A stretch of 62,151 nucleotides of DNA, the filler included, from Dugesia japonica (lineage: Eukaryota): the NCBI GenBank assembly GCA_001938525.1. It is 6 parts of 6 records of this genome, joined end to end, with 100 filler letters (N's around TTAATTAATTAA, not from the genome) between each part and the next. Parts side by side here need not be neighbours in the genome. Positions count along the whole stretch, not along the records: positions 23,712 to 33,495 come from MQRL01469306.1; 5 more parts are not named here. One strand, 5' to 3'. Shown here in pieces: positions 4,070 to 53,083 of the stretch (its first letter is position 1; each line of letters opens with the position of its first letter). Below the pieces are notes generated by a model. That model did not search any database. It saw only the letters and a list, made by a program, of their open reading frames with translations, and had not been told where the DNA came from. Both the position numbers and the translations under genes were made by a program.

Positions 4070-4350
4070 ATAACTTTAGTAAGTTTTTCAGGAACAGAGT
4101 AAATATTTAAATATAATTACCAGATCTCTGGCAACTTTTTTGAAGTATTTTAAGCACCTCTAGTAACTTTTTGATATATTTTAGGGACATCTAGTAAATT
4201 TTGAGTTATTTTTCTTATGTTTTATATGGGATTTTGAAATCGTTTGCGACATCTAGTAACGTTTTGAAAAAGTACCTGAACACTAGTAACTTTTTTGAAA
4301 TAGTAACATGATCTGTGGTAAAATATTTGAAATAATTACATGAAATCTAT
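4070..4350. repeat. Degenerate ~30-bp tandem repeat; related copy near 2200-2330
   Basis: Recurrent units resembling ACATCTAGTAACTTTTTGAAATATTT. Confidence 0.65.
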
Positions 4351-4459
4351 GTAATTTTAAAACAATTACTCTATAAAGCCCTATAATTATCTTGTTAAAC
4401 ATATAGTTACCATATAATACCCTATAAAAGCATAAAAAGAACATATAAAAATCTATAAA

Positions 4460-6381
4460 AAGTCTTTTCGTTACTGCATTCAATTGTCTTAAATCTAAGC
4501 ATATTCTTATGTCTTTCTTTTCTTTTTTCCAAACACATATCAGTGGGCTATTCCATGGAGAGTTGCATTTTCGGATAATATTATTCTCGAAAAGATTTTG
4601 GATAGCTTCTTAAATTTTATATTCTAAATTCATTGGTTGCCTATAGGGTTTTACATTGATTGGTTCACCACTTGTGATTATTTTGTGTCTTGTCAGATAT
4701 GTGCATCACACATCCCATTTATCTGTAATAAAAGCATCTCCTTTACTTTCAATTATTTTCAATAACCGTTGGTTCTTTTTAATTATCAAAATATTTAAAG
4801 CTCTTGTCAATCGCTCTCCATTTTAAATTTGCCTTCCGAATTTCGCTTCAATATTACAAATGTAATTTTCGACTTTTTCATCCGTTTTGCTATCAAGCTT
4901 TCACATAAGCTGGTATCCAAATATCTTCTGCATATCTATTCCTCCTATCAGATCTAGTGTTACTTTTTCAGCACCTAAGAAAGTAATCTCTTTTGCAAAC
5001 TTCATCAATTATCACTCCGGTTCTAACTTTCCCCACAATTTCAAGTGTTCTAGTATTTGCACAACGCAATCTTTTATCACTCATTTCTAAATTTCCTTCT
5101 CGTAATTTATTAAAACAATTCAAACTCATCACGTTAATTCGAGCTCCTGTATCTAATAGACATTTGAATTTATTTCCCTCTTTAAGAACCTGTATACCTT
5201 TTCTGTAACTTTTCCTATATCATTCCACTTTTCGACCCATTGAGGATAATTACTAACTTCGTTTAACAATAGATGGCTCCAACCAACTTATCTACTGGTA
5301 GAGTCCTGCCTTTTGCTTACTTCCTTTCGGAATCCTTTCATATGTTTCCTCATATCCATCGTTTGTACTGAAATCTTCATCTTCAATCGCATGTACTCGA
5401 TTATATCAATTTCTTGACCTTTCTGCATTCATAAATTTCTCACTTGTTCTTTTCGCTTTCAAATTTGTGTAGCACTCTTCTGCTCTATGTCCACCAATAC
5501 CACATCGTTTACACCTCACTTCTTGACATAACCTTCTAATATGGCCAATCTTTCTACAACCAAAACATTTTGTTCGTTTTTTGTTTGGTCAATCTCGACT
5601 TATATGTCCTGTTTTATGACAACTCCAGCCTCTACCACTTTTTTGTCAGACAATTTGCTTTAGTATGACCGATCTTATTACATAACCAACATTCAATATT
5701 TTGTTTTTCCTTTCTTTGCTTTACATGCTTATTGACTGTATGATTTACAGGTTTCTGATAATTTCGATTTCTAACTCTCGCGTAACTTCTACCTGCATCA
5801 ACTCGAGCTCTGCTTTTCTCTACTTTATCTACTAACGTCTTTGTTTCTTCGATTTCTTCTTTATTCTCTCGTTTCCTCAAAGTTACTTCTTCTTCAACTT
5901 TTTTTTATCTGAACAATATACTAGCATATACTACCATTTTTTCTTCAGTAAAATCTTTATTTGTAAAAACTCTTTTTACTAAATCTTTTACATTTTTAAA
6001 ATAAACTTGAATCTTTACATTTCCACGCCTGTAGTTAATTAAATTTTGAAAATCATTGATAACATCTTTCTCTTTCTCAAATGCCATACTTAAACGAGCC
6101 TGAAAACCTGCAACNNNNNNNNNNNNNNNNNNNNNNNNNNNNNNNNNNNNNNNNNNNNNNNNNNNNNNNNNNNNNNNNNNNNNNNNNNNNNNNNNNNNNN
6201 NNNNNNNNNNNNNNNNNNNNAATTCACACCTTTTGATGAATTTCTCAATATCATCTCCTCTGCAGAATATCTTTGGTGATAACCTCTCAGTAATAGAATC
6301 GTTATTTACCGCTTCCAGCATGTTAGGTAAATCTTTGATTGTTAATTCATTTTGCAAATCAGAATTCATATTGTTAGACAT
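4460..6381 (-). mobile_element. Ty3/Gypsy LTR retrotransposon remnant: gag with four CCHC knuckles, protease and start of RT
   Basis: gag ORF 5905-6381; knuckles CWLCNKIGHTKANC, (G)WSCHKTGHISRD, CFGCRKIGHIRRLC, CKRCGIGGHRAEEC; protease CLLDTGARINV near 5130-5165; RT start SPWNSPLICVWKK...IRICLDLRQLNAVT; stops and frameshifts present. Confidence 0.9.
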
Positions 6382-7129
6382 TTTATATTTTACTACTACA
6401 AACTATACTTAATAAGAGAAATGATTNNNNNNNNNNNNNNNNNNNNTCCTTATCCAGAATTAACTCAATTTCTATTGCTTATATTGCTGCATATTATATT
6501 GTTGCATATTCTTTGTTTCACTTGCACATGCTCTTTGTTATAGTTGCACTCGTGTTGCCCTTGTTTCTTGCATTAGTGTTGTACATTTATGATTCATACT
6601 TTTTCTAAACAGGTATTTGTGTATGTATTAGTCCATTATGTGTGTATTGATTTATTATGTATGTATTAGACTTAATATATGTTGAGTTTATTATGTTTAT
6701 TAGATTTTATCAAGTTTAAATACTATAAAAACCTTATAATATCTTAAAACCTTATGAACCTCATAAAACAAAAACTGCTTTGGTTGAAAGATGAAGACGA
6801 GGGACAAGTGATGATGAAAAGGTTAAATAATTCCTGTGTAAAGGTGCTTATGTGTGCAAAAATAATTTTTTAAAAATGAAAATCGCGACAGAATGGGTGA
6901 CGGGTATAACTTTTGGGTTTCGTAGGTATATTTGAGTTTGCCTACACAATCGGTCTATAGGTTGCCAAAGCTAACTATGAGCTAAAAGGTTTGTGCGTTG
7001 CATGAATGCAGCTTTTGTGTTGCAAAAATGACTTTCAAGTATATTTAATGGTTTATGAGCTTAAAAGTATAAATATTCAAATTAAAACGTTTCTTTACAA
7101 GATGATAAAAACAGAACTTTTTTCTTAAG

Positions 7130-7335: not shown

Positions 7336-7439
7336 TCTTTACAAAATAATAAAAACATAAAACATTTTTCAAAAAAAAATCATAACTTCATGGAACCTTT
7401 CCATGTATAACTTATAATTCTATATAAAAATTTATAAGA

Positions 7440-8070
7440 AAATATTTTTATGATTGTATAGGGTTAATGAGTATATATAGTTTATGAGTGTATTATTTAC
7501 AAAGCAACCATGTATTATAATGATTATGAGTGTATTATTTACATATGTTAATGAGAAAATAGGTTTTATGAGTATAATATTTTCATAGTTTCCGTATATT
7601 ATTTACATAGTTACCCTGTATTATAGGGTTTAGGAGTATATTAATTACATTGTTACCTTGTTTTATTTACATAGCAACCGTGTATTATAAGGATTATGAG
7701 TNNNNNNNNNNNNNNNNNNNNNNNNNNNNNNNNNNNNNNNNNNNTGTATTATAAGGATTATGAGTGTGGGACATTTTCATATAAAAAACTTAAAATTATT
7801 ATATACATATCTAATACTTAAGTAATTTTATAAGTGTATAAGGTTTATGAGTGCATTATTTATATATTAACCGTGTAAAATAAGGCTTACGAGTTTGTTG
7901 TTTACATAGTCACCCTGTAATATAAGGTTTACGAGTATATTATTTGCTTAGTTAACATATAATATTTATATAACAACCGTTTAATATATAATTTTTGTGT
8001 GCATTATTTACATATTAACTGTGTAATATAAGGTTGACAAGTTTATTATTTACAAAGTTAACTTGAACTT
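7440..8070 (+). repeat. Left arm of a long, internally repetitive inverted repeat (~41-bp minisatellite units)
   Basis: Units resembling TTATTTACATAGTAACCATGTATTATAAGGTTTATGAGT, plus a unique block (GAGTGTGGGACATTTTCATATAAA, ~7762-7860) mirrored at ~11870-11980. Confidence 0.8.
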
Positions 8071-8084
8071 AAGAAAAATTACAA

Positions 8085-8730
8085 CGAACAACAGTTTATA
8101 TGAGAATTCGATTAAAGTTTAAGGAAAAGTATAGATTTGTGATTATGTTATACTAGTAAAAAGCTAGTAACATAAACCCAGCTTCCGGAAATCATTCAAC
8201 ATTGCAGAAAACCTGATAGGAGCTTTAATAAATAGGAGTCAGTATGTTTAGATCTTCCAAGCTAAATTGGTCAATCTGTACTTGATTTGAGCAAATTACG
8301 AATGTACTAGCTGCAGTACATCAAGTAAGAAGTACAGAAAAGTAGAAAAATGTAGTATTAATTTTGTAGCTGGTGATACTGACAGCAATATNTTTCTAGA
8401 TTTGGTGGATATAAGTATAGGAAAACTGACAGGATTGATGAAGAAAGACGTATTATTAGATACTTTTAACCATAGTAATACATTCAAATCTATCATTGGT
8501 GACTGAAAAAATGAGGATAAGGAAAAGAAGTATTTAGAATGAAGATTCTTACGTCCAAAATTTACAGGTTGCTTTCTGAGAAAGAAACAATGAAAGCAAA
8601 AGACTTATTTTTGAAAAATAACTGCATCAACCATCAAACATATGTTGACTGCTATAATAATTATGAAAAGATCTCAGTCAAACCATTTTGAGTTGTTTTT
8701 AAGAATCATCAACTGTTTAGGTCCAACAAT
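8085..8730 (+). pseudogene. Polinton/Maverick protein-primed DNA polymerase B, C-terminal fragment
   Basis: IGQSVLDLSKLRMY*LQY, catalytic motif AGDTDS (~8370-8387), RFLRPKF, KAK and FKNHQLF; several stops; homologous to the 24234-24512 ORF. Confidence 0.85.
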
Positions 8731-8841: not shown

Positions 8842-9273
8842 ATGTTCGTCATAAATTCATTAATTATATTAACCAATATTAATTACAGAGGTAAAATGTC
8901 GCAAGCAGTAACAAAGAAAATGAGCTTTCCTACAGGCAAACCATGCCAATTCTAAGTCAAAAGCGAGAAATATAAAATTATTTACTTCATATCAGGGAAA
9001 TGTAGAATAATAAGTTACAAGAAACCATTGGAACTGCAAGATTTGAACCCCTTTGGTATAAAAAATTTACAATTAGAATCGCTAACAATTGTCATAAATA
9101 TGGGAGTTTCAATAAATCTGTATAAATTATCAAGAATAGTAAACTGTTGGTTCGAACCAGAGTTATTTCCTGCTCAAAGACTTGTAAAAGATGACCCTTT
9201 ATGTGTAAATGTGTTCTCAAAGAGAAAACTAGTGATACTAGGGCTTAAAAATTTGTATTTTCAGGATTTGTGA
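8842..9273 (+). pseudogene. Minimal intronless TATA-binding-protein-like gene (~143 codons, one internal stop at 8953-8955)
   Basis: ATG 8842 is in frame with ORF 9028-9273. Repeat 1: LTNINY...IIYFISGKCRII. Repeat 2: INLYKLS...FEPELFPAQRL...VNVFSKRKLVILGLK, which matches the TBP consensus YEPELFPGLIYR...LIFVSGKVVLTGAK. Confidence 0.8.
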
Positions 9274-11619: not shown

Positions 11620-11980
11620 ACAATATGCATGCAATTTATATGACTATCTCTATTACATGGCTACTATATAATTAATACCAGGTAACTATGCAAATAAACA
11701 ATACATTATATGATTACTATGTAAATAATACACTATTAAACCATATAACACATGGTTACTATGTAAAAACTACAAGGTAACTATACAAATAATATACTCG
11801 TAAACCTTATTTTACATGGTTAATATGTAAATAATATACTAATAAACCCTATAACACAGAGTTACTATGAAAATAATATACTCACAAACCTTATACATTC
11901 ATAAAAATACTTACTTATAAGGTATATTTACAGTAATTTTAAGTTATTTATATGAAAATGTTCCACACTCATAATCCTTA
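11620..11980 (-). repeat. Right arm of the long inverted repeat, truncated by the contig end
   Basis: Reverse complement reads TAAGGATTATGAGTGTGGAACATTTTCATATAAATAACTTAAAATT..., matching ~7752-7860, followed by the same 41-bp units. Confidence 0.8.
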
Positions 11981-12080
11981 NNNNNNNNNNNNNNNNNNNN
12001 NNNNNNNNNNNNNNNNNNNNNNNNTTAATTAATTAANNNNNNNNNNNNNNNNNNNNNNNNNNNNNNNNNNNNNNNNNNNN
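11981..12080. other. Artificial contig linker (44 N + TTAATTAATTAA + 44 N)
   Basis: 100-bp spacer whose core (12025-12036) gives stop codons in all six frames; the same spacer occurs five times. Confidence 0.95.
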
Positions 12081-23611: not shown

Positions 23612-23711
23612 NNNNNNNNNNNNNNNNNNNNNNNNNNNNNNNNNNNNNNNNNNNNTTAATTAATTAANNNNNNNNNNNNNNNNNNNNNNNNNNNNNNNNN
23701 NNNNNNNNNNN
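23612..23711. other. Artificial contig linker
   Basis: Same N44-TTAATTAATTAA-N44 spacer. Confidence 0.95.
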
Positions 23712-23765
23712 TGTGATTATATAAATGAAATGAGATTTTTTATAAAATTATTTATATTTTATTAG

Positions 23766-23958
23766 TTCTGGATCAACTATTGCCCAAGTAATAGCTTTTG
23801 ATGAAGATGAAGGTAAAAATTCCGAACTTCAGTATTCATTTAAATCGAATAATCAAACTAATGATTTGTTTCTAATGCACGGAGAGTCGGGAAAAATAAC
23901 ATTACAGCAAACAATTAAAGAATCTCACAAAACTTGTTGCTATGTTCTCATAGTAGTG
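23766..23958 (+). CDS. Host exon encoding part of a cadherin repeat (cadherin/protocadherin family)
   Basis: Bounded by TTAG and GTAAG; open frame SGSTIAQVIAFDEDEGKNSELQYSF...LFLMHGESGKITLQQ...YVLIVV with the AxDxDxGxN calcium motif; absent from the ORF track. Confidence 0.85.
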
Positions 23959-24233
23959 GTAAGATAGCTTTTTTTAAAAATTATAATAAATATAAATATT
24001 TAAAAATGCGGCAAAGAATAAGTAAAATCAGTAAGTAGATTGGTCAGCATAATCCCACTATTTTGATTGGTCAATTCAACCCTCCGCTGATCAATATATT
24101 GATTTTCGATTTGATTGATTTTTTATTTTTGAATTTATTGATTTTTGATTTGATTGATTTTCGAATTTGATTGATAATTGATTTTTAAAGTGATTGATTC
24201 TTGAAAATCTTTCTAAACTTATATCCACTAACT

Positions 24234-27000
24234 CTAGAAAAAAGCTCCCAGTAACAATATTATCGCAGTTACAATATTAATACTAAATTTTTCTTCTTTT
24301 CTGTACTTTTCGAGCTCAATGTACTGTAGCTGGTACATTCGTAATTTGTTCAAGTTAAGGTCAGCTTTACCAATGTATCTGGGACAATTTAGGCATACTG
24401 ACTCTTTATTCATTAAAGCTGTAATAAGGCCTTCGTCAATCTTGATGAATTTCTGGAAGTTGGATTTATAAGCATATATTAGCAGGTTTTTACTTGTATT
24501 GCATAATCGCAAATCCGTTTTTTCTTTTAATTTTCGACCGATTTTACATACAAACTATTGTTCAATAGTTTGTAATAATATTTCTCAAGCTCACTATTAC
24601 ATTCTGCTCTTCATGCAGAAATTGTTTCAATATATTCTTCGAATATATGAGCTTGAGTAAATTTTACTGCTCAATGGACCACTTTATCTTCAACTCCTAA
24701 TCTTATGTACATTTGTAGCAGTTTTCAATGCAATACATAATTTTCTTTACCGTAATAAGTTAACATTAGCTTATTCACTTTTTTAAACAAACATTTATTT
24801 ATAAGTGAGTTTGTGGGTGACTAGGCCAAAATAATTCCTGAATTATTCGAATAAATCCGAGATCTATAGGTTCCTGTTTTATTAAATTTGCTTATTCAGA
24901 AAGAACTCAATTTGATTAAGTTCTTGTGCATTTAAGTCTAAACAGAGTTTAGTTTTGTATTGAGGGAAATTTAGCCTCATTGATCATATGATCTAAGTAA
25001 ATGTGATGGCTCACTTTGATTACTTTTTCGGTGGATATTTGAGAAAGTTTCATTATTTCATTCGAGGTTATACCAATTTGGTTGAGAGGCTTTTGATTAA
25101 AAGGTTCTTATAAGCCTAACGTGCCAATGACAAAAGCATCAAGTGTTTCCTCTTTGTGGAACTTTGAACTAATTTCGGCTCTGATTAAAAGTATTTCAAA
25201 ATTAAAATTATTTTATATTATGCAAAAATTATAAAATTATAAAAATTATTTTGTAAACTTATGTTCAAAAATAATTAAAGTTAAAATTAAAATTAAAAGT
25301 TAAAATTAAAAAAATTAAGTTAATTAATTAAAAATAATTAAAAAATAAATTAATTAAAATAAAATAAAGGTATTTCGAAATTAAAATAGATATTTTTATA
25401 TTATGTAAAATTATAAAATTATAAAAATTATTTTAAAAAAATTAGGTTTAAAAATAATTAAACCTACGGGTAAAATAAAAGTATTTTGGAATTTAAAAAA
25501 TCGATATTTTTCAAAAATATTTTATAAAAATTTCTCAGATTACTTGTTTGAATACGTTAAATTGTTCTTCATCATTTTTCACTTTAATCAAAAATCTTGT
25601 AATAATCAATAAAAATTTATAGAGAGTTGTGAGATTTAAAATTTAACTAATAGGAAGCAACCAGAACTAGAAAACTTGTTGCATAATTATATGGGAATAT
25701 CTTCGTTGACGTGTATTTATTTATGAGACTCCATTGTGAGAATTTGCTTATTCCAAATTTTAAGATATGATGAAAATCATACCTTCTTAAATTTTAAAAT
25801 ACAACAGGTAGTTGCATTTTCACTTTTCTGCTCAAATTACACTTACAGCATGCGGCGCCCAAATACTGACCAGTGATCATAGTCACGAACTAATGAAGAT
25901 AGTGTCTTTTTGCACAAATAATGATCTATTGCACCAAATGATAATTCCTGAGCTCTCGATATTATAATTTTCTTATTTTTGTTTTCTATGTAGTATGGAG
26001 TCACCACGTTCTGATTAATTTCTTGTAGATCCTTAAGGAAATTATATATGCAGGCATCTAAGATGAATTTTTTGTTTTTTTGTTAGTAAAGTTATTTAAT
26101 AATAATATTACTGCTGAAACCGGTATATGTTTCTGAAAATGAACATCATCTGTAGGAAGAACTGATTCCAAATCAGCATATACTAAAAATATTGGAGTCA
26201 AAGTCTTGGTGAAATCTTTAAACTCCAATTTTTTTCTGGTAGCATAGTATATAGAGTTGTACCGGTTAGAAATTTTTCACAAATTATCACATCTTTATCA
26301 AATGTTAATTTAAACCAAAATCTGTTTTGAGCACCAATTTGAAAAGATTTGAACACTAGATCTTTTAACATAACGATTCAATAAGAAAATGGTACTTATT
26401 TCCATTCTCTAGCAGCAAAAAATTATTTTTTTATCCATCGATTACTTTAGACGTAAAGATAATATCCAAAATGAGATGTTTGAAAACATTTTGATCACCA
26501 TTTTCTACTTCATTTGCATTCCATGAAAAGACATTAATGGCATATTCAGGATTTTATCTTTCAAATTTTCTTATATTATCTAATCTCATTGATATGTCTG
26601 ATTCATTGAACTGTAGCTCAGACATGTATTTTTTATATATTGCTGCTCTATTTCTATCATATGCATAAACCCCATTTTCTTTAATAATTGCTAAAATGTT
26701 GTAAATAAAGCATTTACTATCGCTATTCTTGATATTGACAATGACCATTTTCTTTTTTAGATTTTATGGAGATAGTATGTAACCATGACCTGTCAGTCTA
26801 CTCATATTTTCAATCTTGGTGATTTTGAAATTAACTTCCAAAATCCTGTTCAATATTCAGCTGGAGCCGAGCTTGTTTATTATAACTTTTTTTTGTTTAA
26901 TTGATTTATTCCCTCTTGGAAAAAATTATCACTTAATTGAATGGCTCTATTTGATATTCTGTAAATTTTTATTTCTACGTCCTTTATAAATTCAACGTTG
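24234..27000 (-). pseudogene. Polinton/Maverick protein-primed DNA polymerase B, degenerate
   Basis: IVNIKNSDSKCFIYNILA; VYADLES; a DHxH..GAAH..CNL-like motif near 25830-25890; ENYVLH...YIRLG; LNCPRYIG...LNKLRMYQLQY. Confidence 0.85.
24980..25190 (-). mobile_element. 3' end fragment of an RLE-type non-LTR retrotransposon (NeSL/R2-like) inside the PolB remnant
   Basis: TLDAFVIGTLGL*EPFNQKPLNQIGI resembles the RLE C-terminal consensus (DAFIVGSLGSWDPxNxxxLxxLGI). Confidence 0.55.
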
Positions 27001-27019
27001 ATGTCAAATTGAATTTTTA

Positions 27020-28251
27020 CATCTTTCAGTTCTTCAATAATCTTAAACCTTTTTCATATATTTGTGATATAACTGCTCTAATTGTATTAAAACTCGCATC
27101 TGTATCTAGTACAAACATCTTTTTGATATCTAGAAAACTCAATATCGGTGCTTTTGTTAATGCCTCTTTCATCTCATTAAAAGCTTTATCCCAGTTTTTA
27201 GACCTCACAAGTTTTGTATTATTACTTCCACATAGCTCTTCCAAGCTTCTACCTTTCTTTGAGTAATTATTGATAAACCGTCTATAATAATTGTATTTTT
27301 CTAAAAAGTTTCTCAAATTCTTCACAAATATAGGTCTTCCGAAATTTTTTATCGCTTCTATTTTTTGTGGATCGATTCGGACTCAATTTTTGTCTGTGAC
27401 ATGTCCTAAAAGTTTGACTTCTGCTCGTAATAAATGACAATTTTCTGGATTAATTCTCAATCCTGATTCTTGAACTCTTTTAAAACCTTGGTCTGAAATT
27501 CTATAATGCTGCTCTAAATTTTCTGAAAATATCAATATATCATCCATGAATACCATTGTTCCTCTAAATTTCCCTAATACTTTTGTCATTAATTCTTGAA
27601 ACGTTCCAGGTGCTGCAGCTATACTAAAAGGCATTCTTGTGAAACAATACTGTTCATTATTCGTAGAAAATGCTGTTTTTTCTTGTGAATCTTAATTTAA
27701 CGGAACTTGATAATATGCATTACTCAAATCTAACGTCTTTCCTCTCTTTTTTCCAAACACATATTAACGGAGTGTTCTATTGCGAATTAAACTTCCGAAT
27801 CATGCCATAGTCAAACAAATTCATGATAGCTTCATCGATCTTATTTTCTAAATGCATTGGTTGTCTCCATGGTTTCGTATTTATTGGTTCTCCATTTTTG
27901 ATTATTTGATGTTTTGCCATTGTTATTCTGCCGATATCCCAGTTGTCTGCCATTAAAATTCCTTTATAAATCTGTATAACGTTCTACAAATTCTCATTTG
28001 GTTTGTTAATCAATATTTTTATTGCTCTCTATACTCTCTCTTCATCTGTTGTACTTCGTCCATACTTTGCTTTTATATTACAAAGATATATTTCGTTGTC
28101 ATTACATTTAGTCTCTCTCAGAATTTGGAATCCAAACTGTTTCTGTAATTCTCTTTCTCTTATTAGATCTGAATTTAACTGGTTTGAATTTATTCTTGAA
28201 TTCCACTTCTACCTTTACCGTACCTACTATTCAAGTGTACTATGATTGGCA
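27020..28251 (-). mobile_element. Ty3/Gypsy element, 3' part (end of protease, RT, start of RNase H)
   Basis: ANHSTLE..GTVKVEVEF; DLSNAYYQVP; FTRMPFSIAAAPGTFQELM; VFMDDILIF; FVLDTDASFNTIRAVISQ. Confidence 0.9.
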
Positions 28252-28255
28252 GATC

Positions 28256-28399
28256 AGTAAATGGCAAATGACTAATTCCCTACAAGATTCTACCCTTTAC
28301 ATTCATTTACATGTTTAATACCTAGAAAAAGTAATATAAAATTTTGTATTATGAAAGTAAATTGTAAGACCAAGGGGAATTCGTCATTTACCATTTACT
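28256..28399. mobile_element. 144-bp cassette with AGTAA-terminated inverted repeats
   Basis: AGTAAATGGCAAATGACTAATTCCC (28256-28280) matches the reverse complement of 28375-28399 at 23/25. Confidence 0.8.
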
Positions 28400-28929
28400 A
28401 TTGTTGGTGTCTTGATATTTTGGTTTTCTGATTTTTTGATTTTAAAATAAAAAATAAAAAAACAAATACAAATAAAATATAAATAGATTTTTGTTATTTT
28501 ATTATTTTTATTATTTTAGTAACAGTACAGTATGGTATTACAGTACAGTATGGTATTACAGTATGTTATTACGGGATTACATTATGGTATAACGGTACAG
28601 TACCAAATATATTATTATAAAAATGGTTTTTAACAATACAAGTGAAGTAGAGCTAACTCAAAATGAATTTTATAAATTGTTAAAAAATTGTTAAAAATTG
28701 TTATTTTTTATTATTAAAAATAATGGAAGATATTTTTGAAGATATAAAACAAGATTTAAAATTATTTGAAGATAGAATTGAAAGTGAAGAGTTTGAAAAA
28801 TTAAATAAATGTGTTGAAGAAAAAATAAGAAGATTAATAGTTTTGAAAAAAACCGAATAAGATGAAAAAATAAAATAATGTTAAAAGATTAAGAAAACTA
28901 AATGTTATGATAAAAAAATTTTATAAATT

Positions 28930-29163
28930 TTGTTTTTATTATTTTTTAAAAATATAATAAAATTTTTAAACAATAAAAGGAAAGAATATACTTGTAATAA
29001 TTGTAAAGAAAAATTTGATGGTAAAGTTAATTTATATAAACATTTAGATTGGACCCATTGGGATTCTAAAACATGTAGAATTATTTTTAATTTTGAATGG
29101 GAATGTTATTGTCACCAAAAATTTAAGACTACTAAAAATAAATTTGTCTTAATACACCAATAA
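28930..29163 (+). CDS. Small C2H2 zinc-finger ORF inside the mini-element, probably truncated
   Basis: YTCNNCKEKFDGKVNLYKHLDWTH. Confidence 0.5.
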   Translation: MFLLFFKNIIKFLNNKRKEYTCNNCKEKFDGKVNLYKHLDWTHWDSKTCRIIFNFEWECYCHQKFKTTKNKFVLIHQ

Positions 29164-29302
29164 ATACTTATAAATAAAATTACACCACCATATGTTGTTT
29201 ATACAAAAGAGAACAATGAAGAACTTCATGAATATTATGTTAAAAATTTATATATTGGAATCATCATAATAATTAGTTTTTGTTTTTATTTCAATAAAGA
29301 AA

Positions 29303-29704
29303 ATGGATACAACAAAATTAAATATTGATAATAATATTAATTTTCAACACTTTCCTCTCAAAAATGATGTTTTAAGAATTTCACCTTTATCTGGATCAAT
29401 TAATAATTTAATGTCTTCTGGAGATATAGTTTTTAAATCTTTACAGTCTTTAAATCCATTAGACATTTTTAATTCAATGTTATATTTTAAAGTTACATTA
29501 GAATTTGATGCAGCAGATGTAAATAAAGATAAAATAACTTTGGAAAATAATTGGTTTCTAAGTTTATTTAAATCAATGAGATTAACTTTAGGATCTTCAG
29601 ATGTGGAAATAATTAATGATCCTGGAATATCGTCAACAATGTTGAATTTAATAAGAACTAATGAAATTCATAAAAATATATACTGTCATTTGGTTTTTGA
29701 ATAA
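29303..29704 (+). pseudogene. N-terminal fragment of a Polinton/adintovirus major capsid protein (double jelly-roll)
   Basis: GDIVF...LDIFNSMLYFKV...LENNWFLSLFKSMRLTLGSSDVEIINDPGISSTM matches the family pattern NN...LF..IRYELNG.EI....GITST; truncated at 133 aa. Confidence 0.7.
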
Positions 29705-29779
29705 TTTGTTTTTTACTAGCCATTTTTCCAAGTAATAAAATAATAAAATAAAATAATCTTTATAGTTTTTTTGAATAGT

Positions 29780-30120
29780 ATTTTCAATTTGTTTTAAAAA
29801 AATCTAAATCTCTTATTTTATTATAATCAGTTTTTGGTTTATAGGTTAAATTAGGATTTTGAATTTGATTTATATTTTTCTTTTGAATTTGCTGCTTTTC
29901 AAACCGCTTTTTAAAAGATTCATATTGTCCATTAATATATCGTTTTAAGTTTTTAATCTTGGTTTTTCTATTATAAGGAATATTAAATTCTCTTAAATAT
30001 TTTCTTACTGTTTTTTCATTTACATTATTGTTTAGAAAAAGCTAAAATTGAACTTTCAATAAAATTATAACTTTTTAACAATTTATAAAATTCATTTTCA
30101 GTCATATTGTTAGAAACCAT
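29780..30120 (-). pseudogene. Small frameshifted gene with a helix-turn-helix-like motif, starting inside the right TIR
   Basis: MVSNNMTENEFYKLLKSYNFIESSILAFSK, then after a frameshift NNVNEKTVRKYLREFNIPY; the left TIR holds the paralogous start MVFNNTSEVELTQNEFYKLLK. Confidence 0.45.
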
Positions 30121-30221
30121 TTTTTTAAAAATATATTTGATAATATACCGTTATACCATACTGTATTGTTACTGTACTGTTCCTGTTACTAAAATAGTAA
30201 AAATAATAATAAACAAAAACC

Positions 30222-30452
30222 TGAGTAATAGTGATAACTACGAATGTGAGCCGATCTTTTTTGGTTTACTAGATGTGCACGTTTATTTTTATTTCAAAGC
30301 CGCGAACTAAATACTTCCACAAGCCAAAAAACAAAAGCCGTAGTTTGTTTTTATTCTCAACTCTGTTCTACTGGTATCAAACTTTGGTCCACTGGTATTC
30401 TCTTATCATTATAGTGGTTTCGGCTCATATTTGTAGTTATTACTATTACTCA
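30222..30452. mobile_element. 231-bp cassette with 33-bp inverted termini, (TG)AGTAATAGT...
   Basis: TGAGTAATAGTGATAACTACGAATGTGAGCCGA (30222-30254) matches the reverse complement of 30420-30452 at 30/33. Confidence 0.8.
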
Positions 30453-31900
30453 CATCTTAAATTGTCTTTTTTTTTATAATATATTGACTTTCCACAATCT
30501 TTCCAAAATTCTTAAACTCATCACATTAACTCTTGCTCTAGTGTCTAACAAGCAATCAACTTTTATGCCTTGTATTTCAACAGTTATACTTGGTCTACCT
30601 TACATCTAGTCATAACTTATCTCTTGTCGCTTTATCTCTTCTATCGTCAGAATTTCACTGTCATCTTCTCCATTTATATCATTGATCATCTCTGGTGGGC
30701 CTCTAATCAATTCTTTCTTTACAAACTTGTAAACGTTTTCTTTGACATCATTGTACTCATCTACTCTTTTATCTTTGTTTCTTATATTTATATCATTATT
30801 TATACTACTTTTACTGTAATTAACAATACAGAGATTTTATGGGATACTTAATTCAACTGGCAATCTCGATATAGCTTTGCCATTTGGGTAATCATCTTTA
30901 TAAATATTTGATCCTTCATAACAAAAGTGGCCTTTGTCTTCTCTACATACACAATCTTTTCTATTTTCCTCAATTAAATTAACATGACTTCCACTCTTTC
31001 TTGCGTAGTTTTTCGTTTTATTCGAATAATATCTTTGTTTGTTATTTCCGAATACTTTTCTGGTCTGTATACTTTTATTCTGATAACTAAACTGTCTGTT
31101 CATATTTGTGTAACAGTCCTCTGTGTGGTCACCTTTTTTGTTGCATCTTGAGCAACTAACTTTAGTAAAGTCTCTTCTTAGGTGTTGTTCAGATTCACAA
31201 ACAACTCTTTTCTTTCTTTCTTGACAATTTCTACTTACATTACCTATTTTGTTACAGGTCCAACACGTTATTTCTCGTCTTTCGTTGTTTCTGTTCTGTT
31301 GCATTCCTTAATTTCGACTCTTGCTGAAATTTGTTTGTTCTGGACTTCGGTGAACTGCATCTCTGTAATTACGAACTACACATATTTCTTCAGTTTTTAT
31401 ATTGTCTTTTATAATTTTCCCGCTCTTTTATTGTTTTAAATAAATCGTCTACTTTTTCTAGTTTTTCTGATTTGATTTTATTTTTAATCTTTCTGTCATT
31501 GCATTTATTCATTATTAGCTCTTTTCTTAAGTCCTATTTGTTCTATTTTTGAGCCATTAACATTTCTACTAATCCTTCAATCTTCTTGTTATAAATATTT
31601 ATATGCTCTTTATTCCTTCGATAATTTAGAGCTTCCTTCATATCTTTAATCATTTTTGATGGCCTAAAGAAAGCCTTTTTGAATCTTCTTTCAAATCCCA
31701 ATGATTCGTCTTTATTTTCATAGATTTCACGCAGATCTTTATTTATGAAAGCANNNNNNNNNNNNNNNNNNNNNNNNNNNNNNNNNNNNNNNNNNNNNNN
31801 NNNNNNNNNNNNNNNNNNNNNNNNNNNNNNNNNNNNNNNNNNNNNNNNNNNNCGTTGGTCGCCATATTAGTTAAATTCAAAATCTGACAACTCTCCATAA
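30453..31900 (-). mobile_element. Ty3/Gypsy element, 5' part (gag with zinc knuckles and start of protease)
   Basis: CWTCNKIGNVSRNC; CSRCNKKGDHTEDC; IKVDCLLDTRARVNVM; ends at ...DNLRC, which continues at 28251. Confidence 0.9.
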
Positions 31901-32466
31901 ATTTGTCTTTATTATTATAAGTGTTTTTTGATTAAAACAAAAAAAAACTTGAAAAATAATTCATTGTATTCAAACAAATAATCTGAGAAATTTTTCATTA
32001 AAATATTTTACAAATATCGATTTTTCAATTTTATGAAATATTTTACTTTACATAATAATTTCATAAAATAAATTAAAAATATCGATTTTTAATTTTCTGA
32101 AATCTTTTATTTTACATGTTTTAAAAATAAATTTTAATATTATATATAAAAATTAAAACAAAATTTCTCAGATATTTAAATCTATGAATTATTCTAACAC
32201 TTTACATGAAAGCAAATTTTAATGGGTATATTATATATTTTCTTAAAAAATATTTAACTTAAAAAAATTAATCATTAAAAAAACATAATAAAATAAAAAA
32301 CCTAACATGAATTTACATTCATTATATTCCATAATCCAGAACCTCGTCCTTCAGTAACAAATCAATTCTAAATTAATAAAATTACTTAATTAATAATAAA
32401 TAATAACAAATTTACCGTTTTCATATTCGAATTATTATTTCTTCCAATTTGCCTGTGTTTTGTTCA

Positions 32467-33495: not shown

Positions 33496-33595
33496 NNNNN
33501 NNNNNNNNNNNNNNNNNNNNNNNNNNNNNNNNNNNNNNNTTAATTAATTAANNNNNNNNNNNNNNNNNNNNNNNNNNNNNNNNNNNNNNNNNNNN
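33496..33595. other. Artificial contig linker
   Basis: Same N44-TTAATTAATTAA-N44 spacer. Confidence 0.95.
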
Positions 33596-41113: not shown

Positions 41114-43090
41114 TTAAAATTNTTCTATTGGGAGTTCAAAGTTTCGATTTAAATCTTTATCTTGATCGAAAACCCATTGCATTTCTCCAGTTGGTAATAA
41201 TTCACACATTGCTGATGAATACAAAGAATTTGCATCATAATACATTAAATAGTTTTCTTTTAAATATGGTTTAAATAATGAATTTAATTTTGACGCTCGT
41301 AGTGGATCCTCACTTATTTTATTAAACATGTATTATTTTGATATATTCTTTTGTTTTATTTTATTAAAAAATTTATCATGAGCTGGTAATTTAGTTTCTT
41401 GCATAATTTCTTCTTTTTTATTAAATGAGTTTTATGTTCTTATATAAGCATATGGAAATATTCCTTTTAATGGTTTTAGATTATATTTATTTAAATGTAC
41501 ACATTCTTCTGGTTTAAAGTTTTTGCCGAAATCTTGTAATGAATTTGGCAATAATCTTAAAGAGTCTAAAATTCTAATACATCCAATTGGAAGTGAAATA
41601 TATTCTTCATCATTTTTACACAAAACATTTGCTCTTTTGTGTGCCCCTTTCGGGTTTTTAATTTCTTCTTTTTCAAAACGTTAAGTAAATATTAAATGTA
41701 AATCATTTTTACATCCATTATGAAAATACATTGGAACAAAATCAAATTTAGCTTTTAAGTTACAACTATTACAAGACAAACTCTAAAGTTTCCATTGAAA
41801 TGATCGTGATCTGCAACTTTATTTTCTGTTAGCTCTTTATTACAATAATAACAATTACATTTCTCGGGCTTATTTAAAATTTTTGAGATCGGAATATTTG
41901 TTTTTAATAATTGTTGAAATTCATTTTCTAAAGATAAAAACACATCAATAAACTTTTCTGCTGAATCTTCTCCATAATATTCAATATATTCTGATTTTTT
42001 TTAAATGCTCATAATAGCTTAAAATATAAATTCCAATCGATAAAGGTTTTTCTTCTAGGAGATGGGGCCCTTTGGGATCTCCATTTAAATTATTAAAACA
42101 TTNNNNNNNNNNNNNNNNNNNNNNNNNNNNNNNNNNNNNNNNNNNNNNNNNNAAATGTAACTTTATTTTTAAAATGATGTTTATTAAAATATAAATATTC
42201 ATCTTCAGGAAATATATTTATTGCTGTTTTATTATTTAAACATAATCTTTGGTTAGTATTTAAACAGTTCTTTGTTCTAAATCCAATTCTACAATTTAAA
42301 CATGGAAATGATTTATTTCTAGAACAATTTATAAATACACTTACAATGGAACAAAATATATAATGTTCTTTGAAAATAAATAAATTTGTATAATGGTTCG
42401 CTTCAAGATCTGTTGGTAGCCAATAATAATGATTTAGAATAATTGGTTTAATTTGTCTTGTTTCATTAATTTCAAATATGTTAACTTTAATATTTTCATT
42501 GTTTTTATTAAATTGTTTTACATAATTAATTGAAACTGGTAAATCTTCAACTGAATTCATTAGATTTTTAGTTTCTTTATAACTTTGATTAGTATATTTT
42601 AATGAATTAATTATTGAATGATAAAAACATTTATTGTTATTGTAATTTTCGTTAAATAATACTTTTGATTTAAATGGTAATTCTTTAAATGTTCAACCTA
42701 AAGGAGATGTATATTCGCCAAAAAAATTTCTATTGAATCTACATTTTGAATAATTAATCCAATTTCATATCCAATTTAATTTCAATGAAGTTATTAAACA
42801 AAACTTTTCATGAGTTAGCAATCCAAATTTTGATTTAAATACTTTGTTACATTTTAAACATTTAAATTCTTTTATTTCTTTTTCTTTATTTATTCCACAG
42901 AATTTTTTATGAGTGGTTAATCCATTTGGTTTTTAAAAAACTTTATTACATTTATCACATTTAAATTCATTAATAATATTTTCAATTTGAATTGATGGAA
43001 AACATTTTTTATTTTTTTTAATGTGTTGATTTAAATCATTTTGTTTTTTAAAATTTTATTGCATTTAGCACAAACAATTGTTGAAGACAT
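41114..43090 (-). pseudogene. Polinton protein-primed DNA polymerase B (N-terminus to motif A, internally deleted) preceded by three zinc fingers
   Basis: KCFYHSII; EHYIFC...FPCLNCRIGF...QRLC; CYYC...DHDHFNGNFR; YFHNG; RILDSLRLLPNSL; KGIFPYAY; YYDANSLYSSAM...LPTG; fingers CAKCNK, CDKCNKVF, CLKCNKVFKSKFGLLTHEKFC. Confidence 0.88.
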
Positions 43091-43254
43091 TTTAAGTATA
43101 AATAATTTAACTAAATAGATTTTTTAAAATTAATTGTTACCGTGGTAATAGGTTTTTATTTTATTTTTTAAATTTAATTTAACAAAAGAAAGATGCGCGC
43201 ATCACTTTTTTAATTTTTATTTTAATTTTAGTTTAAATTTAAATCCAAAGCTAG

Positions 43255-43400
43255 AGTAATGGTAATACGGGCGGCTTATGTTTTTAGGCTGCCGCTATTA
43301 ATATTTTTTTCTTCTATTTACAACGGTGTTTAAAGGTGGTTAATTTCAGATGTCAGGTCAAGCATCGAGCCTGCCTAGGTGCCCCCATATTACCATTACT
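43255..43400. mobile_element. 146-bp cassette with AGTAATGG inverted termini, upstream of PolB
   Basis: AGTAATGGTAATACGGG (43255-43271) matches the reverse complement of 43384-43400 at 16/17. Confidence 0.7.
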
Positions 43401-43685: not shown

Positions 43686-43785
43686 NNNNNNNNNNNNNNN
43701 NNNNNNNNNNNNNNNNNNNNNNNNNNNNNTTAATTAATTAANNNNNNNNNNNNNNNNNNNNNNNNNNNNNNNNNNNNNNNNNNNN
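43686..43785. other. Artificial contig linker
   Basis: Same N44-TTAATTAATTAA-N44 spacer. Confidence 0.95.
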
Positions 43786-46685: not shown

Positions 46686-49600
46686 CATCCTGATGATTCA
46701 TTGAACAATACTTTGTCACAGTATCAGATCACAAATTCTACATTACAAAATGTGGAGTCAATAAATACGTTAAGCATGTCTCAACAATCTGTTCAGGTTC
46801 AACTACCAGGTATTGGGAATTTTTTGCTTCATATTCCTTCAAATTTCAAACCTGGTGAGCCAATAACTTTACCTTTAAATTTACCTCTAACTCCAGTTTC
46901 TCAACCATCTGGTGTTAATCCTATATCAATACATATGAATACTGGTCAACTAATGTCAAATCAGTTGCTTTCACTTTATAGTCCGTCCTCAAATATTAAT
47001 ATAACAGCTGGTAAAAAAATGAGAGCTATAGCTCCAAAACCTTCTAAACCAACATATCGCCAGCCGTTAATTGCTCCCAAAACGAGTAGTCCAAATACAT
47101 CAATTAACAATCAAGATAGCTTGAATAGTTCCACGCTTCCGGCCCCATCCGGTCCTGGCAGACGCAAAGGTAATAAAGGTAAAAAATCTGGTCGTAAGAG
47201 AGGTGCTCCAGCAAAATCCCATAAAAATTCCAGCTATGCTTCTTCAACGCATAGTATAGATAGTCAAGAGGCATGTCAGTATAATGAAAATAATTCACTG
47301 AAACAAAACTGCAATAATTCTTTGAATACCCGTAGTACATATCAATGCAATTATTATGTAAATAACGATTCATCAGATTATTTAAATCAGCCGCATGTTG
47401 CTATATCACATTCTTTTAACGAAATTAATTCAAATACTCTATTGGATAATTCTGATTCTGGCGAAAAAGATCTTCTTTCCTTGGCTTGGGAAATATCTAA
47501 TGCAGAGTTAAGTAATACTGATGATTTTACAACTGCGTACAATTTATATGATGCCAGCAACTTGGGTACAGATGGTTTTGTGTCAAGTGAAATTCTCGAC
47601 CAATTTTTACAAAATATTCAAAAGGATGATATTACAGAACTAACTAGGTGTTCCACAACCCAGATAAACATTGATTCCAGAGTATCTTATGCATCTTCTT
47701 TCACTACCTTACCCCCGTGTAGTACAGTTTTACCATCAGTAACAACTTCTACATATTTAAATAATTATTCAAATAATTCATCCAATATTGAAATGCCACA
47801 GTGCATTGAAATTGCTGAAGTTGTTAATCTCAATACTGAAGATATGTTGACTGAACTTGAAAAAGAAGAGAATGCTTTTCTTGATAAATTTGTCGCACAA
47901 TATAGTGGTAGTCATCAAAATGAACTTATAAGATGCGATTCTCAATCTGTGATTCCTGTTTCTTTACCGACAACTATTGAATGTCCTATAATTTCAAAAA
48001 TTAATGATAACATTCTTAAAGACATAGATTCAAATTGCCGATCTAATTTAATAATTGAAGATTCAGAGAAGGAAATAGATTTGAATATAAAAGAATCTAA
48101 CGAACTTTCGGAGATTGCCAAACAAATTGAAATATCATGTAGTTCTTCACAACAAGATTCCGAAGCAACACTTAAGTCTAAGATTTATAGTATGTGTGAA
48201 AGCTCGGATGGTCAAAGTAAAATAGATATTTTTTCTAAAGAAAATGATCATATTTCGGAAGCAAACTTTAGTAATAATACTAATAATACTATTAGCTTTT
48301 GTACTATTCCTAATACTTCTATAGAGCTTATTTATTCTTCTACAAATGATGCATTATTAGATGAAAAAACTCAATGCTTGATGTCAATAAATTTCGATTC
48401 AAAGCGTAACAACGAGTCATCATTCTACGTTACTGATTCTGCATTAAAGTCTAAAACATTAGATGATTTTGGTTTATTTGAGTTTTGCACAGATGGAGAA
48501 ATTTCTTTAAATATGAAAACCTTAAATCATGAATCAGCAAATACTATTATTGATGATGACAACAAATATATTGAACCACCTATTTTAGAAGATATATCAG
48601 ATGCTACACCTATACAATCAGATAATGAAAGTGAGGATGAAGATATCGATGAATATGCTTTTAAATTTTCAAGGTTTAATTATTTTAATAGTAGAATAAA
48701 TAAAATGAAAAAAATACAATTTGATCTCACTAAAAAATTGTACTTTAATGATTTTATAAAAAATACACCAAGTTTAAAACTTTTTCAAAAATATGACTTA
48801 ACTCAAAATCAGTCTAAAAATTGGTATATTGGTAATGACGAACTTAAAATACTCGATATATTTTCTAAAGTAAATTTAAGAAGCGAAGAACATGTTTTAA
48901 ATGACAATGTTTGTTGTGAAAGTAAGTCAATTGAGGATTTTCACAATTTGACAAAATCGTCGGAAGATGGTTCGATTTCTTTTAAAAATGTTGATGATGT
49001 AATTTGTAATACAAAATTAAATGATAAAACGGAAAATGATTTTAATATGTTAGTAGTGTTAGAAAGCAACATCGAAAATAATAATGAAAAAACAATTTTA
49101 ATTGGAAATCAAACAAATATGATTTGTACAAAAATGAATTGTGATATTACAAAAGATTTTGAAAACATGTCTACAAGTTTCATTGAAGATAATGTTAAAG
49201 ATAAAATCCAAAAGATTAGAACTGATGAGTTAGATGTTGATTATTGTCCCATAAATAAATCACAGAAATACAAAGTTAAAAATACAGTATGTAGTACATT
49301 AAAAAAACAGAAGAAAGGGAAAAAATCCGAAAAAGTAATTCATCCTCCTAAAGAATTTAAAATTAATAAAATTGAAAATATGTTTGATATTCCAAGAGAT
49401 AGGCAAAGGCGTCTTAGAAAACCTCCTAAAAAATTGGCCATTTATCAATCTATTAATTTTATTGAAAATAAATTTTCTATAGCTATTGATAAAAAAATGA
49501 ATTCTAAGCGAAAGGCTGAATTTTCAGAAAAGCAAAAGTTAAGTACAGATTTTAAGCGATGCACTCGTTCCAAAGGTTCTATATCTAAATCCTTTGACTC

Positions 49601-52202
49601 ATTTTATGAGGCAATTTCAAGACACAAAATTTCTTCGAATTCAAAAAGCAAAGTTCCACAAAAGAATATTTCTAACAAAGAAATTTCATTGAATTTAATT
49701 TCATTAAATTCTCATGAATTATCAGAAAAAAAATCAAGTGAAAATTTTATCGATATTAATATGATTAGTAATTCTAATTCTTGTACAGATATCGATCAAC
49801 TATCCAATCTACAGACTCAAATTGATAATTCAAATATTGTAACAAATGATGATATTGATGTTCGTCTTTCAAACATAAAAATACCTCCTTTCTCAAAAAC
49901 TATTCTAAATCAATTTAAATCTGATTATAAAAACTCAAACGTTATCAGAAAATACAATTTAAGAAAGAATAGCATTTCAATTAAGCGTGAAAATGAACAC
50001 TTTATAGAACACAACTCTTATGTGAAAATTCAAAGAAGTAAAAATAATTATGTCCAAAATATGTCAGAGATTAATAAAAAAGATACTTTAAAAAGTAATA
50101 GTAAACTTAATCAATTTAAGAGAATGAGGAAATTCAGAAAAACCAAACTCCTGCAATACAATATTAACAATGCTATGATAAAAAATAATGCAGATGAATA
50201 TGAAAACATAGATTTCCATTTAGCTTTCTTTGAAAATAAAGCTATAATTATTGAATCTGTGATAGAGAATTTTTTATATCCAACGGTTAACGTTAATGTC
50301 TGCCAGACTGCAAATTTTGTGGAAAATAAGCGTTACGCTTATAATCACACCTCAGAGTTTATTAATAAAAAGTTTTATCCAGTTCGAAAAATTAATAAAA
50401 AACTGAGAATTTACAGTGGCTTAGAATCAAACGTGAAAAACGACAATATAAAATATGCATCTTTGATAGATATGAGTCTAAACGATTTTCCTTGTAGATT
50501 TCAATGTTGCAGTCAATTTGCAAAAGTTATAAAACCTAGCAATATATTGATTAATACTTCGATGTATAATCAGTTTATTCCAGATTCTTATAGTGCCACT
50601 ATTGAAATTCAGAGTTTTAATAATACTGATGAACCGATTTCAGATACAGATGATATTGAAAGTTTAGATGCTCCGTTAGTTATCGTTGAAATAGATGAAA
50701 TTTCTGATCACAGCAGTCATATAAAAAGGAAAGAATATGATAATTTAATTGATAGTAACTTAAGCGAAAATAAAAATTTATCAAATATGTCGAATCAATC
50801 AAAAAATTTTGAGAAACCAATTGTAAAGAAACAAAATGAAGTATCAGATTTTCAAAAAACATATTCCTTAAGAACCAAATGCCGACAAAAAACTAATTTT
50901 GTAAAACGGAAAGAAAAAATAAAAAGACCATTATTTAATCGATTGTGCAAAAAATCAGAAATACATCATGATATTAATTTAGAGAATGATAATGATCTTA
51001 TAAATAATATTAAATTAAAAACGCCAATTTGTTCTATTGAAAAACTATCCCATAATGATATAATTGCTAATTTAAGTGTATCGTCTAATTCAGTTAACAG
51101 TGATATGATTAATAACAAAGAGGAAATTGATTCAAATTTAGAAAATTCATTCAGAAATAATTTTAAGACCTCTGCGATTGATGTTATAAATTCAATTAAT
51201 TTAAAAGAAATTGAAAGAAATGTTTTTAAAAAATTAAAAGGGTCTATTTTGAAGAAGATTAAAACTAAAGTTAATGTTTACAAAATTATAAAAAAATCTT
51301 TATGGAGAAAAAGTGTTCACAGAATTTTCAAGAATAAATTAAAATCTAAATCTAAAATTATTTTGAATTGTTATAGAAATTATTCTGGCAAATTAGATAA
51401 AAATGTCAAATTATTAAAAGATAGTATTACGCATCTAGTTTTACAATCTAAAGATTACAATGAAAATCTTGATAATGATGATAATGAATCCATTAATGTT
51501 GAAAATGATTCTCCAAATCATGAATTTAACACGTATTTAGATTCGAATAACGTTGAAACTTTTTCTAGGAATTATGGTTCATTTTCATTAAAAATTAAAG
51601 TTCAAAAAAAAGATCCTGATCAATTAGAAGAATCAACGAATATTAAAAAACATAAAAAAAATTCGAAAAAGCGTAAGAAACTGAGGCATTTTCTTAGTAG
51701 TATAATTGGATCTGATGATATAACTTATAAAATGAATTCTTCTGAAGAATATGAAAAACTAGCTGAACTTAATAATGAAATAAAACGCAAAAATAGAAAA
51801 AGGAAATACTCTTTAAATCATGATACAGTTTGTTCTGATGTTTATAATACTAATCAAGATTTAAGAAATTATTTAAATCAAGAAATATCTCATTTAACCT
51901 CAGAATCTCGATCTAATGATGATTCTCAATATCAGAAACCGATTAAAATTAAACTTTTTAAATCAACTAATGAAGACTTGTCAAAGTTAGAAGGTAGTTC
52001 TTTTCATTCTGAAAAAATTGTTTTCTCTCTTCAAAAATCTGATGATAACAATAAAAATGAATTTGGAAAAACTGCTAATCAAAAAATTTTGCAAATAATT
52101 CAAAATATGCCTTCTAAACCATGTAGACAAGCAGCTAATTTAGCAAAAAAGAAAATCTTTTCTACTGCTAAAGAAGATCGACGGAGTCAAAATGCTACCT
52201 TG
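46686..52202 (+). CDS. Host gene exon 3: 5.5-kb exon encoding an Asn/Ser/Lys-rich low-complexity region; the gene probably continues past the contig
   Basis: Uninterrupted 1841-aa frame; TTTAG acceptor in phase 0 and TTG|GTAAGC donor at 52203; repeated IAPK motifs and basic NLS-like clusters; no domain recognised. Confidence 0.9.
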
Positions 52203-52675
52203 GTAAGCTTTATTAAAATAATTTAATTCGCTTTTAAAGTTTTCTATCACACTTACTTAATTTGAAATGGTATTGCTTAAAAGAATTTAATTTTATATAA
52301 TTACAAATAATTGGAAAAGTTTAATTTATTTTTAAACTTTTATTAGCTGGTAAAGGAAAATTTTATACATATGCTTTAAATATCGCTAGGTATTTAAAGA
52401 AATTGCTTTACTTATAAATACCTATTTTTAGGAAAATAATCCGAATACTTTTCAATATCAAAACGATTAATTTCACACATTTTATTTGGTTGTTTGGAAA
52501 GTAATTTCGCTTTTTGTGTCCATGTTTTATTCTTAATTTAAAGCACCAAAGACAGTTTGAACTTATTAAATTAAAAATTAAAAAATACTCATTACAACAA
52601 TTTACAAATCTATTTTGATTTAAAGGTAAATTTGTTTTAATATATCAAATTATTTTTAGGTGGGATATTTGACAA

Positions 52676-52942: not shown

Positions 52943-53042
52943 NNNNNNNNNNNNNNNNNNNNNNNNNNNNNNNNNNNNNNNNNNNNTTAATTAATTAANN
53001 NNNNNNNNNNNNNNNNNNNNNNNNNNNNNNNNNNNNNNNNNN
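52943..53042. other. Artificial contig linker
   Basis: Same N44-TTAATTAATTAA-N44 spacer. Confidence 0.95.
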
Positions 53043-53083
53043 TTGATGATCTGTCTTGAGATTCTGCATGTTATGTTTATTTT

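Follow-up and report, generated by a model that had tools for sequence, protein, structure and literature searches.

How Polintons (Mavericks) replicate has, to our knowledge, never been worked out experimentally. Short non-autonomous derivatives of these elements are held in Repbase, and the ends of parvoviruses carry a terminal hairpin that serves in fold-back priming. The hallmarks of Polintons comprise a 6-bp target site duplication (TSD), AGT..ACT ends and short tandem repeats (PMC8097293, PMC3014272, PMC4196379), and the standing model of their replication, as given in the accessible parts of PMC4196379 and of a bioRxiv preprint from 2026 (10.64898/2026.07.28.741278), holds that the two ends must pair in an end-to-end racket. 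The same preprint describes terminal palindromes in the endogenous virophages and PLVs of Halocafeteria seosinensis and proposes hairpin priming for them. According to its available sections, these palindromes are tight (52 nt in subtype 5, with a search gap of at most 10), lie within the terminal inverted repeats (TIRs) and occur mainly with non-pPolB elements of the protist.

Here we analyze an insertion of ~2.2 kb in Dugesia japonica, further called the block, which consists of a cassette with spaced inverted arms at either tip (A on the left, C on the right) and a gene-bearing part B between them. Like animal Polintons and adintoviruses, as far as these are covered by the consulted parts of PMC8097293, PMC8502044 and PMC3014272, the block combines a 6-bp TSD and AGT..ACT ends with a double-jelly-roll capsid, and its relatives share PolB, the A32 ATPase and the rve integrase with them. 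Unlike them, the block is only 2.2 kb long, is devoid of polymerase and integrase and carries inverted repeats that are specific for each tip, the two tips having five bases in common. With the Halocafeteria palindromes (10.64898/2026.07.28.741278, in part), it shares self-complementary tips that adjoin the TSD, whereas its type of arms stand 94-165 bases apart, its tips are unlike, its host is an animal and its clade has a pPolB. A tight palindrome (gap of at most 10) is absent, and instead of a link with non-pPolB elements, a further cassette of the same design (D) adjoins a pPolB gene. Streptomyces telomeres, in the available part of PMC4513846, likewise have a terminal sequence complementary to a nearby inner copy in a terminal-protein-primed replicon, but they differ in their internal origin and patched ends, and no homology with the tips is implied. 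The likeness with parvovirus hairpin ends is functional; again no homology is implied, and the block is without a Rep gene. In composite and Foldback-flanked transposons, as presented in the accessible text of PMC6431247, the outer ends of two inverted-repeat units similarly move the intervening DNA with one duplication; in contrast, the flanking units of the block differ mutually, encode nothing and have a putative mobility only. Finally, non-autonomous Polintons are also gene-depleted elements with Polinton ends, and the available portions of PMC11296320 and PMC5499653 describe no unequal tips in them. Neither spaced tip cassettes nor unlike tips were found for animal Polintons in the accessible text of the literature searched; the founding Polinton papers and Repbase were outside its scope and may hold such spaced designs undescribed.

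The window, i.e., the whole stretch of 62,151 nucleotides that was analyzed (assembly GCA_001938525.1), is AT-rich, gapped and full of decayed transposons. It is stitched together via 100-bp linkers (44 N, 12 bases, 44 N; 11981-12080, 23612-23711, 33496-33595, 43686-43785 and 52943-53042), so that its long-range order is uncertain. Besides transposon remains, it includes a cadherin exon (Pfam E 9e-7) and a piece of a Gypsy-type fusion glycoprotein, which are indicative of an animal, and an open frame of 1846 codons without a Pfam match (46686-52226, plus strand), which is probably a large host exon. A broken fusion glycoprotein gene of the Monjiviricetes type (53060-54066, plus strand; Pfam E 7e-14) probably represents an LTR-element env. 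Long inverted repeats of 42-bp tandem units (7391-8065 and 11648-11980) surround ~4 kb, and a fragment of a TBP domain lies within them (8956-9270). The stretch 24210-24563 recurs in inverted orientation at 8086-8423. A third PolB gene is represented by pieces (24321-24781 and 26551-27053, minus strand) that abut the Gypsy element hosting the block, and an 80%-identical inverted pair (25470-25652 and 31865-32115) encloses a PolB piece, a Gypsy fragment and the block; this pair represents either two repeat copies or the ends of a larger element.

The block is a single insertion from AGTAA (28256) to TTACT (30450) in the protease region of a dead Gypsy element (27029-31866, minus strand), of which pieces of gag, protease, RT and RNase H are left (Pfam RVT_1 and RT_RNaseH_2). 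By depth, this host belongs to a very high-copy family, with a sister copy near 4300-6400. When translated and aligned separately, the flanks of the block meet at adjacent codons of this sister copy (~5050-5075), as a sequence-only reading of the locus had claimed. The same reading recognized no TSD beyond a possible CA dinucleotide and, hence, no Polinton-type duplication. This premise does not hold: at the true ends, 28256 and 30450, CAGATC (28250-28255) faces CACATC (30451-30456), which differ by a single mismatch (5/6 identical). Among the 11 ways to combine a left with a right end in the block, A-left with C-right has the best matching flanks, while the other 10 reach at most 3/6. The pairing of the outer left with the inner right end of B, all A/T, yields 3/6 over 6 bp and 4/5 over 5 bp. 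By chance, a match of at least 5/6 arises with a probability of 0.012 between hexamers drawn at random from the window and of 0.0034 against the CAGATC/CACATC hexamer. As to the empty sites that the earlier reading proposed to inspect, other copies of the Gypsy family do carry the hexamer singly at the same place (18 contigs in run X4 and 18 reads in run X14), with loose ends before 30451. The 6-bp TSD around A-left and C-right, together with the AGT..ACT ends, shows that the outer ends of A and C served together in one 6-bp-duplicating integration; A, B and C are enclosed by this single duplication and were thus inserted as one block, as had been read before. Readings with a 2-bp CA duplication, with TG..CA ends for C or with GAG ends and a 4-bp duplication were dropped in favor of the 6-bp repeat, which agrees with both junctions and with the unoccupied family sites.

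Cassette A (28256-28399, 144 bp), whose outer end delimits the insertion on the left, reads AGTAAATGG.. / ..CCATTTACT. Its 25-bp arms match at 23/25 positions, stand 94 bp apart and close one long imperfect hairpin (fold z -6.2, with 0/200 shuffles as good). Cassette C (30224-30450, 227 bp), which provides the right end, reads AGTAATAGT.. / ..ACTATTACT and has 31-bp arms (28/31) at a distance of 165 bp (fold z -5.1, equally with 0/200 shuffles as good). The short tandem units at the ends are AGTAAAT-GGCAAAT/GGTAAAT in A and AGTAAT, occurring twice, in C; overall, the ends are AGT..ACT. Between A and C, an AT-rich spacer of 85 bp (28400-28484) precedes B (28485-30222), which is bordered by a subterminal inverted repeat. 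The left arm of B (28485-28686, plus strand) starts with AG and contains tandem repeats of the ACAGT type as well as an ATG at 28623, and the right arm (30072-30222, minus strand) ends in CT one base before C. Both arms are identical at 137 of 151 aligned bases (91%) with five indels, and their homology stops 1-2 bases from the inner AGTAAT of C. The three inverted-repeat units of the sequence-only reading all exist, but C measures 227 bp instead of 231 bp and the spacer between A and B had not been listed. The AGTAA that it placed at or near each end is indeed the start of A, while the repeat of B starts with AG at 28485 and has AGTAAC 33 bp inside. No homology is detected between the outermost 229 bp on the left, which hold A, and the outermost 228 bp on the right, which hold C: they have only the five bases in common (global alignment z 0.4). 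TIRs that reach both tips are therefore lacking, the 151-202-bp repeat being subterminal. The near-equal lengths of these unlike tips are not explained by the reading that we favor below. The paired sequences of the block (arms and TSD) differ by ~8-17%, and this copy is thus old, and dead. Upstream of the first ATG inside three ends, a motif ACGGTA was seen by eye at a distance of ~25-45 bases (28596-28602; 30147-30152 and 43135-43142, both on the minus strand), which is a possible promoter element; the whole flanks are not significantly alike.

The interior of the block is a Polinton from which most genes have been deleted, between subterminal repeats. Small ORFs and the start of a capsid gene survive on the left, and the start of one gene on the right. 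ORF reading on the plus strand gives decayed small ORFs (28723-29160) that resemble a coiled coil (28723-28857) and a C2H2 zinc finger (28927-29160; Pfam zf-C2H2 E 0.002, below the family cut-off). They are followed by the N-terminus of a Polinton-type double-jelly-roll capsid of ~130-133 residues (29303-29701, plus strand); the remainder of this capsid gene is deleted. The 5' part of the first gene from the right end (29787-30120, minus strand) is broken near 30030-30045; no homologue of it was found, the best Atlas score (0.88) being only a weak helix-turn-helix lead. Pfam and homology searches reveal neither PolB nor rve integrase in the block, nor a parvovirus Rep gene, and no Rfam families were found within it. 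Except for low-complexity matches, the window contains no further copies of any module. The capsid fragment noted in the sequence-only reading is real: among 1.84 billion proteins it has 48 matches at E<=0.001 (best E 3e-23), PF21738 is present in nine of the ten full-length capsid matches scanned, and the fragment aligns with the capsid gene in each of the 16 loci of this clade that were fetched from metagenomes. Among these relatives, protein-primed PolB (locus L002), A32 ATPase (L011) and rve integrase (L004) are encountered. In L004, phospholipase A2-like and rve integrase domains share one frame (5191-6606, minus strand). No capsid or ATPase relatives were confirmed in viral contigs and none were found in prokaryote genomes; the exact pattern of the A arms has 0 matches in viral as well as in metagenome contigs. 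The small ORFs of the block and those of L011 show no significant homology (best shuffle p 0.018 in 9 comparisons), so that their similar gene order is one by type only.

Local inverted repeats of this design are found at four Polinton ends, namely A, C, D and the end of L011, and in 4/4 cassettes the inner arm repeats the terminal bases exactly up to the first AGT. Beyond the first bases, no sequence shared among the four tips was detected, nor among their inner flanks. Cassette D (43255-43400, 146 bp), of the AGTAA type with AGTAATGGTAAT arms (16/18), is located at one end of another Polinton remnant, which is distinct from the block; its fold is weak (z -2.0, with 8/200 shuffles as good). 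A decayed protein-primed PolB gene (41117-43090, minus strand) starts ~165 bp inward from D, which thus lies upstream of it. It aligns with the L002 PolB in five collinear tblastn pieces and with that of L013 in one, and matches Pfam DNA_pol_B_2 with E 4.5e-5 and 0.004, both under the family cut-off. The N-terminal part of this PolB gave no match in a word-index search, and N-terminal zinc fingers are observed in the gene. The L011 cassette is 150 bp long, of the AGTAGT type (AGTAGTTAGTGG..CCACTAACTACT), and located 15 bp from the end of a metagenome contig. Its arms match at 22/22 positions (fold z -10.8) and it precedes small ORFs and a capsid gene of the same clade as that of the block. A third, degenerate copy of its inner arm occurs as a direct repeat 78 bp further in (136-186 versus 214-264, 73%). 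The partner end of D was looked for and not found, and L011 likewise shows a single end. A strict scan, unbiased by position (arms of 18 nt with up to 2 mismatches, AGT ends and a span of 60-400), retrieves three cassettes in the window (A, C and D) against 0 in 10 shuffles. In the related loci, matches occur in one out of 16, compared to 0.07 per shuffled set; the other 15 loci show no terminus. Since A, C and L011 were already known when the thresholds were chosen, D is the cleanest independent case. A looser scan gives eight matches where 1.15 are expected, of which five are AT-rich and away from Polinton ends.

The 24 sequencing runs listed for the block all carry a single species label. 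Reads were consulted at 82% likeness in three DNA contig sets from three studies (X1, X2 and X4) and in one RNA run (X14). Pieces of the block occur exactly (0 differences, depth 5-9) in all three DNA sets: 28564-28824 in X1, 28564-28765 in X2 and X4, and 29052-29320 in X2. Summed depths (X1/X2/X4), which are rough ratios only and not copy numbers, amount to 632/576/363 for the center of A and 14/26/16 for the spacer bin (partly in a skipped region), to 135/83/31 up to 235/223/103 for the left arm and to 97/98/40 for the outer right arm. The capsid piece reaches up to 47,000 and the right-end ORF up to 25,000, while C (79-192/94-181/89-226) stays near the adjoining arm in two of the three runs (X1 and X2). 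By these depths, the modules also exist elsewhere, in unequal amounts, and the exact composite is rare or unique. In each of the three DNA runs, one contig joins the inner end of A (28399) via unknown letters to sequence like 28948 onward (57-58 letters on the shorter side). Coming from another locus, this contig links A to a Polinton interior elsewhere too. A joint from 28414 to 28944 (side of 30, two of three runs) counts for little, its match being AT-rich. None of the 24 pieces listed out of 19,573 spans an internal junction, and the 15 joints listed out of 79 include no strand-changing joint, array or shuffled module order; contigs drop rare forms. The oligo-dT RNA run, of which a quarter of the reads was covered, contributes 352 reads, with 0 at >=99% identity, and no depth on the center of A, the spacer and most of C; it has no bearing on expression. 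That the block would be an assembly artefact is extremely improbable. The window is a gapped scaffold of short contigs (26 N runs) and none of the 24 pieces listed spans the whole block, yet the block lies within an N-free stretch (23712-31753), has a TSD at AGT..ACT ends on both junctions and is represented by exact pieces in all three studies.

The block is a Polinton derivative and not a canonical member, as it is without polymerase, integrase and matching tips. We consider it probable that it is one Polinton/Maverick derivative from a single insertion, in which A and C are the self-folding tips of two subfamilies. The mini-Polinton with hairpin-capped ends that the sequence-only reading put forward is hence the best-supported of its options: TSD, AGT..ACT ends, capsid, D and L011 speak for it, whereas the role of the tips in replication is something we infer. 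Under this reading, B would not be an element in its own right but what is left, in a subterminal position, of the terminal repeat. A Polinton rve integrase joined the outer ends of A and C to the target, creating the 6-bp duplication, and most of the interior was lost either before or after this event. In this clade, each end probably bears a local inverted repeat of its terminal 20-30 bases, 95-165 bases inside; the cassettes of D and L011 support A and C as element tips, not passengers. Once the protein-primed polymerase has displaced a strand, the 3' tip of that strand may pair locally; the resulting duplex could then either be an origin at which the terminal protein primes or provide a fold-back primer. 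Such pairing would need no opposite end and would replace the end-to-end racket. No match between the tips would be required when each folds on itself. An element with tips from two subfamilies could therefore still be copied and integrated, and the present copy may be such a chimera, its body being C-type and its left tip A-type. Several observations count against this reading, among them the late choice of the scan thresholds, the looser-scan matches away from Polinton ends, the lack of detected homology among the tips and between the small ORFs of the block and of L011, and the absence of internal junctions from the pieces listed. In addition, there are two independent examples only (D and L011), each with a single end, and D folds weakly; A appears far more abundant than the adjoining spacer, as a free MITE would be; and the homology of the arms has its edge at the inner end of C, which looks as if C were separately bounded.

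The latter two features recur in an alternative that we regard as unlikely while giving it weight, namely that A, B and C are distinct Polinton-derived units, two of them mini-elements and one a deleted element, each with boundaries of its own; linked extrachromosomally or neighboring in the chromosome, they would have been moved together by the integrase via their outermost ends, as in composite transposition. B is bounded by AG..CT ends of its own, the homology of its arms does not extend past the inner end of C, the apparent abundances of the three units are unequal, each cassette has two integrase-type ends, and a single duplication surrounds the whole block. Yet, the cassettes of D and L011 stand singly at the ends of gene blocks, which would require targeted capping four times; arrays and shuffled orders are missing among the 15 of 79 joints listed; no module occurs solo elsewhere in the window; and C and the arm next to it have similar depths in X1 and X2. 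The concatenated satellite arrays that the sequence-only reading proposed gained little for these same reasons and are equally unlikely.

It is improbable that the tips are genuine but roleless, i.e., by-products of template switching or fold-back repair, with the mismatch of A and C as a one-off recombination. Such an origin would agree with the differences in length and sequence between cassettes, and accidental annealing is what the Halocafeteria preprint, in its available part, offers for its palindromes (10.64898/2026.07.28.741278). It accounts poorly for the same design in four unrelated sequences, three of them within 144-150 bp, and for inner arms that equal the terminal bases up to the first AGT in every cassette. 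More improbable still are cut-and-paste MITEs that nested by chance beside a Polinton fragment and of which the duplications were later deleted. The window is a nest of transposons, GAG or TG ends with flanks matching at 3 of 4 positions are conceivable for C, and A, C and D, taken singly, are short non-coding units with terminal inverted repeats, as MITEs are. However, the 6-bp duplication fits A-left with C-right, which largely refutes this explanation, and an own TSD, which the sequence-only reading had expected of ordinary MITEs, is absent from each cassette: over 6 bp, the flanks match at 1/6 for A, 3/6 for C, 2/6 for D and 3/6 for L011, and no duplication of 4-8 bp exceeds AT-rich chance.

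Non-matching tips that were integrated, in a clade with self-folding tips, provide a testable alternative to the model in which two ends pair. The self-folding tip model predicts flip-flop loops, paired changes in the arms and inverted dimers. For annotation, it implies that such elements would be missed or given wrong boundaries by searches that presuppose matching ends, and that repeat finders would call their tips MITEs. A more far-reaching proposal, which we put forward tentatively and rate as possible but rather doubtful, is that a clade of animal Polintons replaced the end-to-end panhandle pairing by self-contained fold-back tips, so that a cassette of 145-230 bp would constitute a complete origin and integrase end. 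If true, tips would be swappable between subfamilies, unlike ends would be viable and cassettes may break free as minimal satellites.
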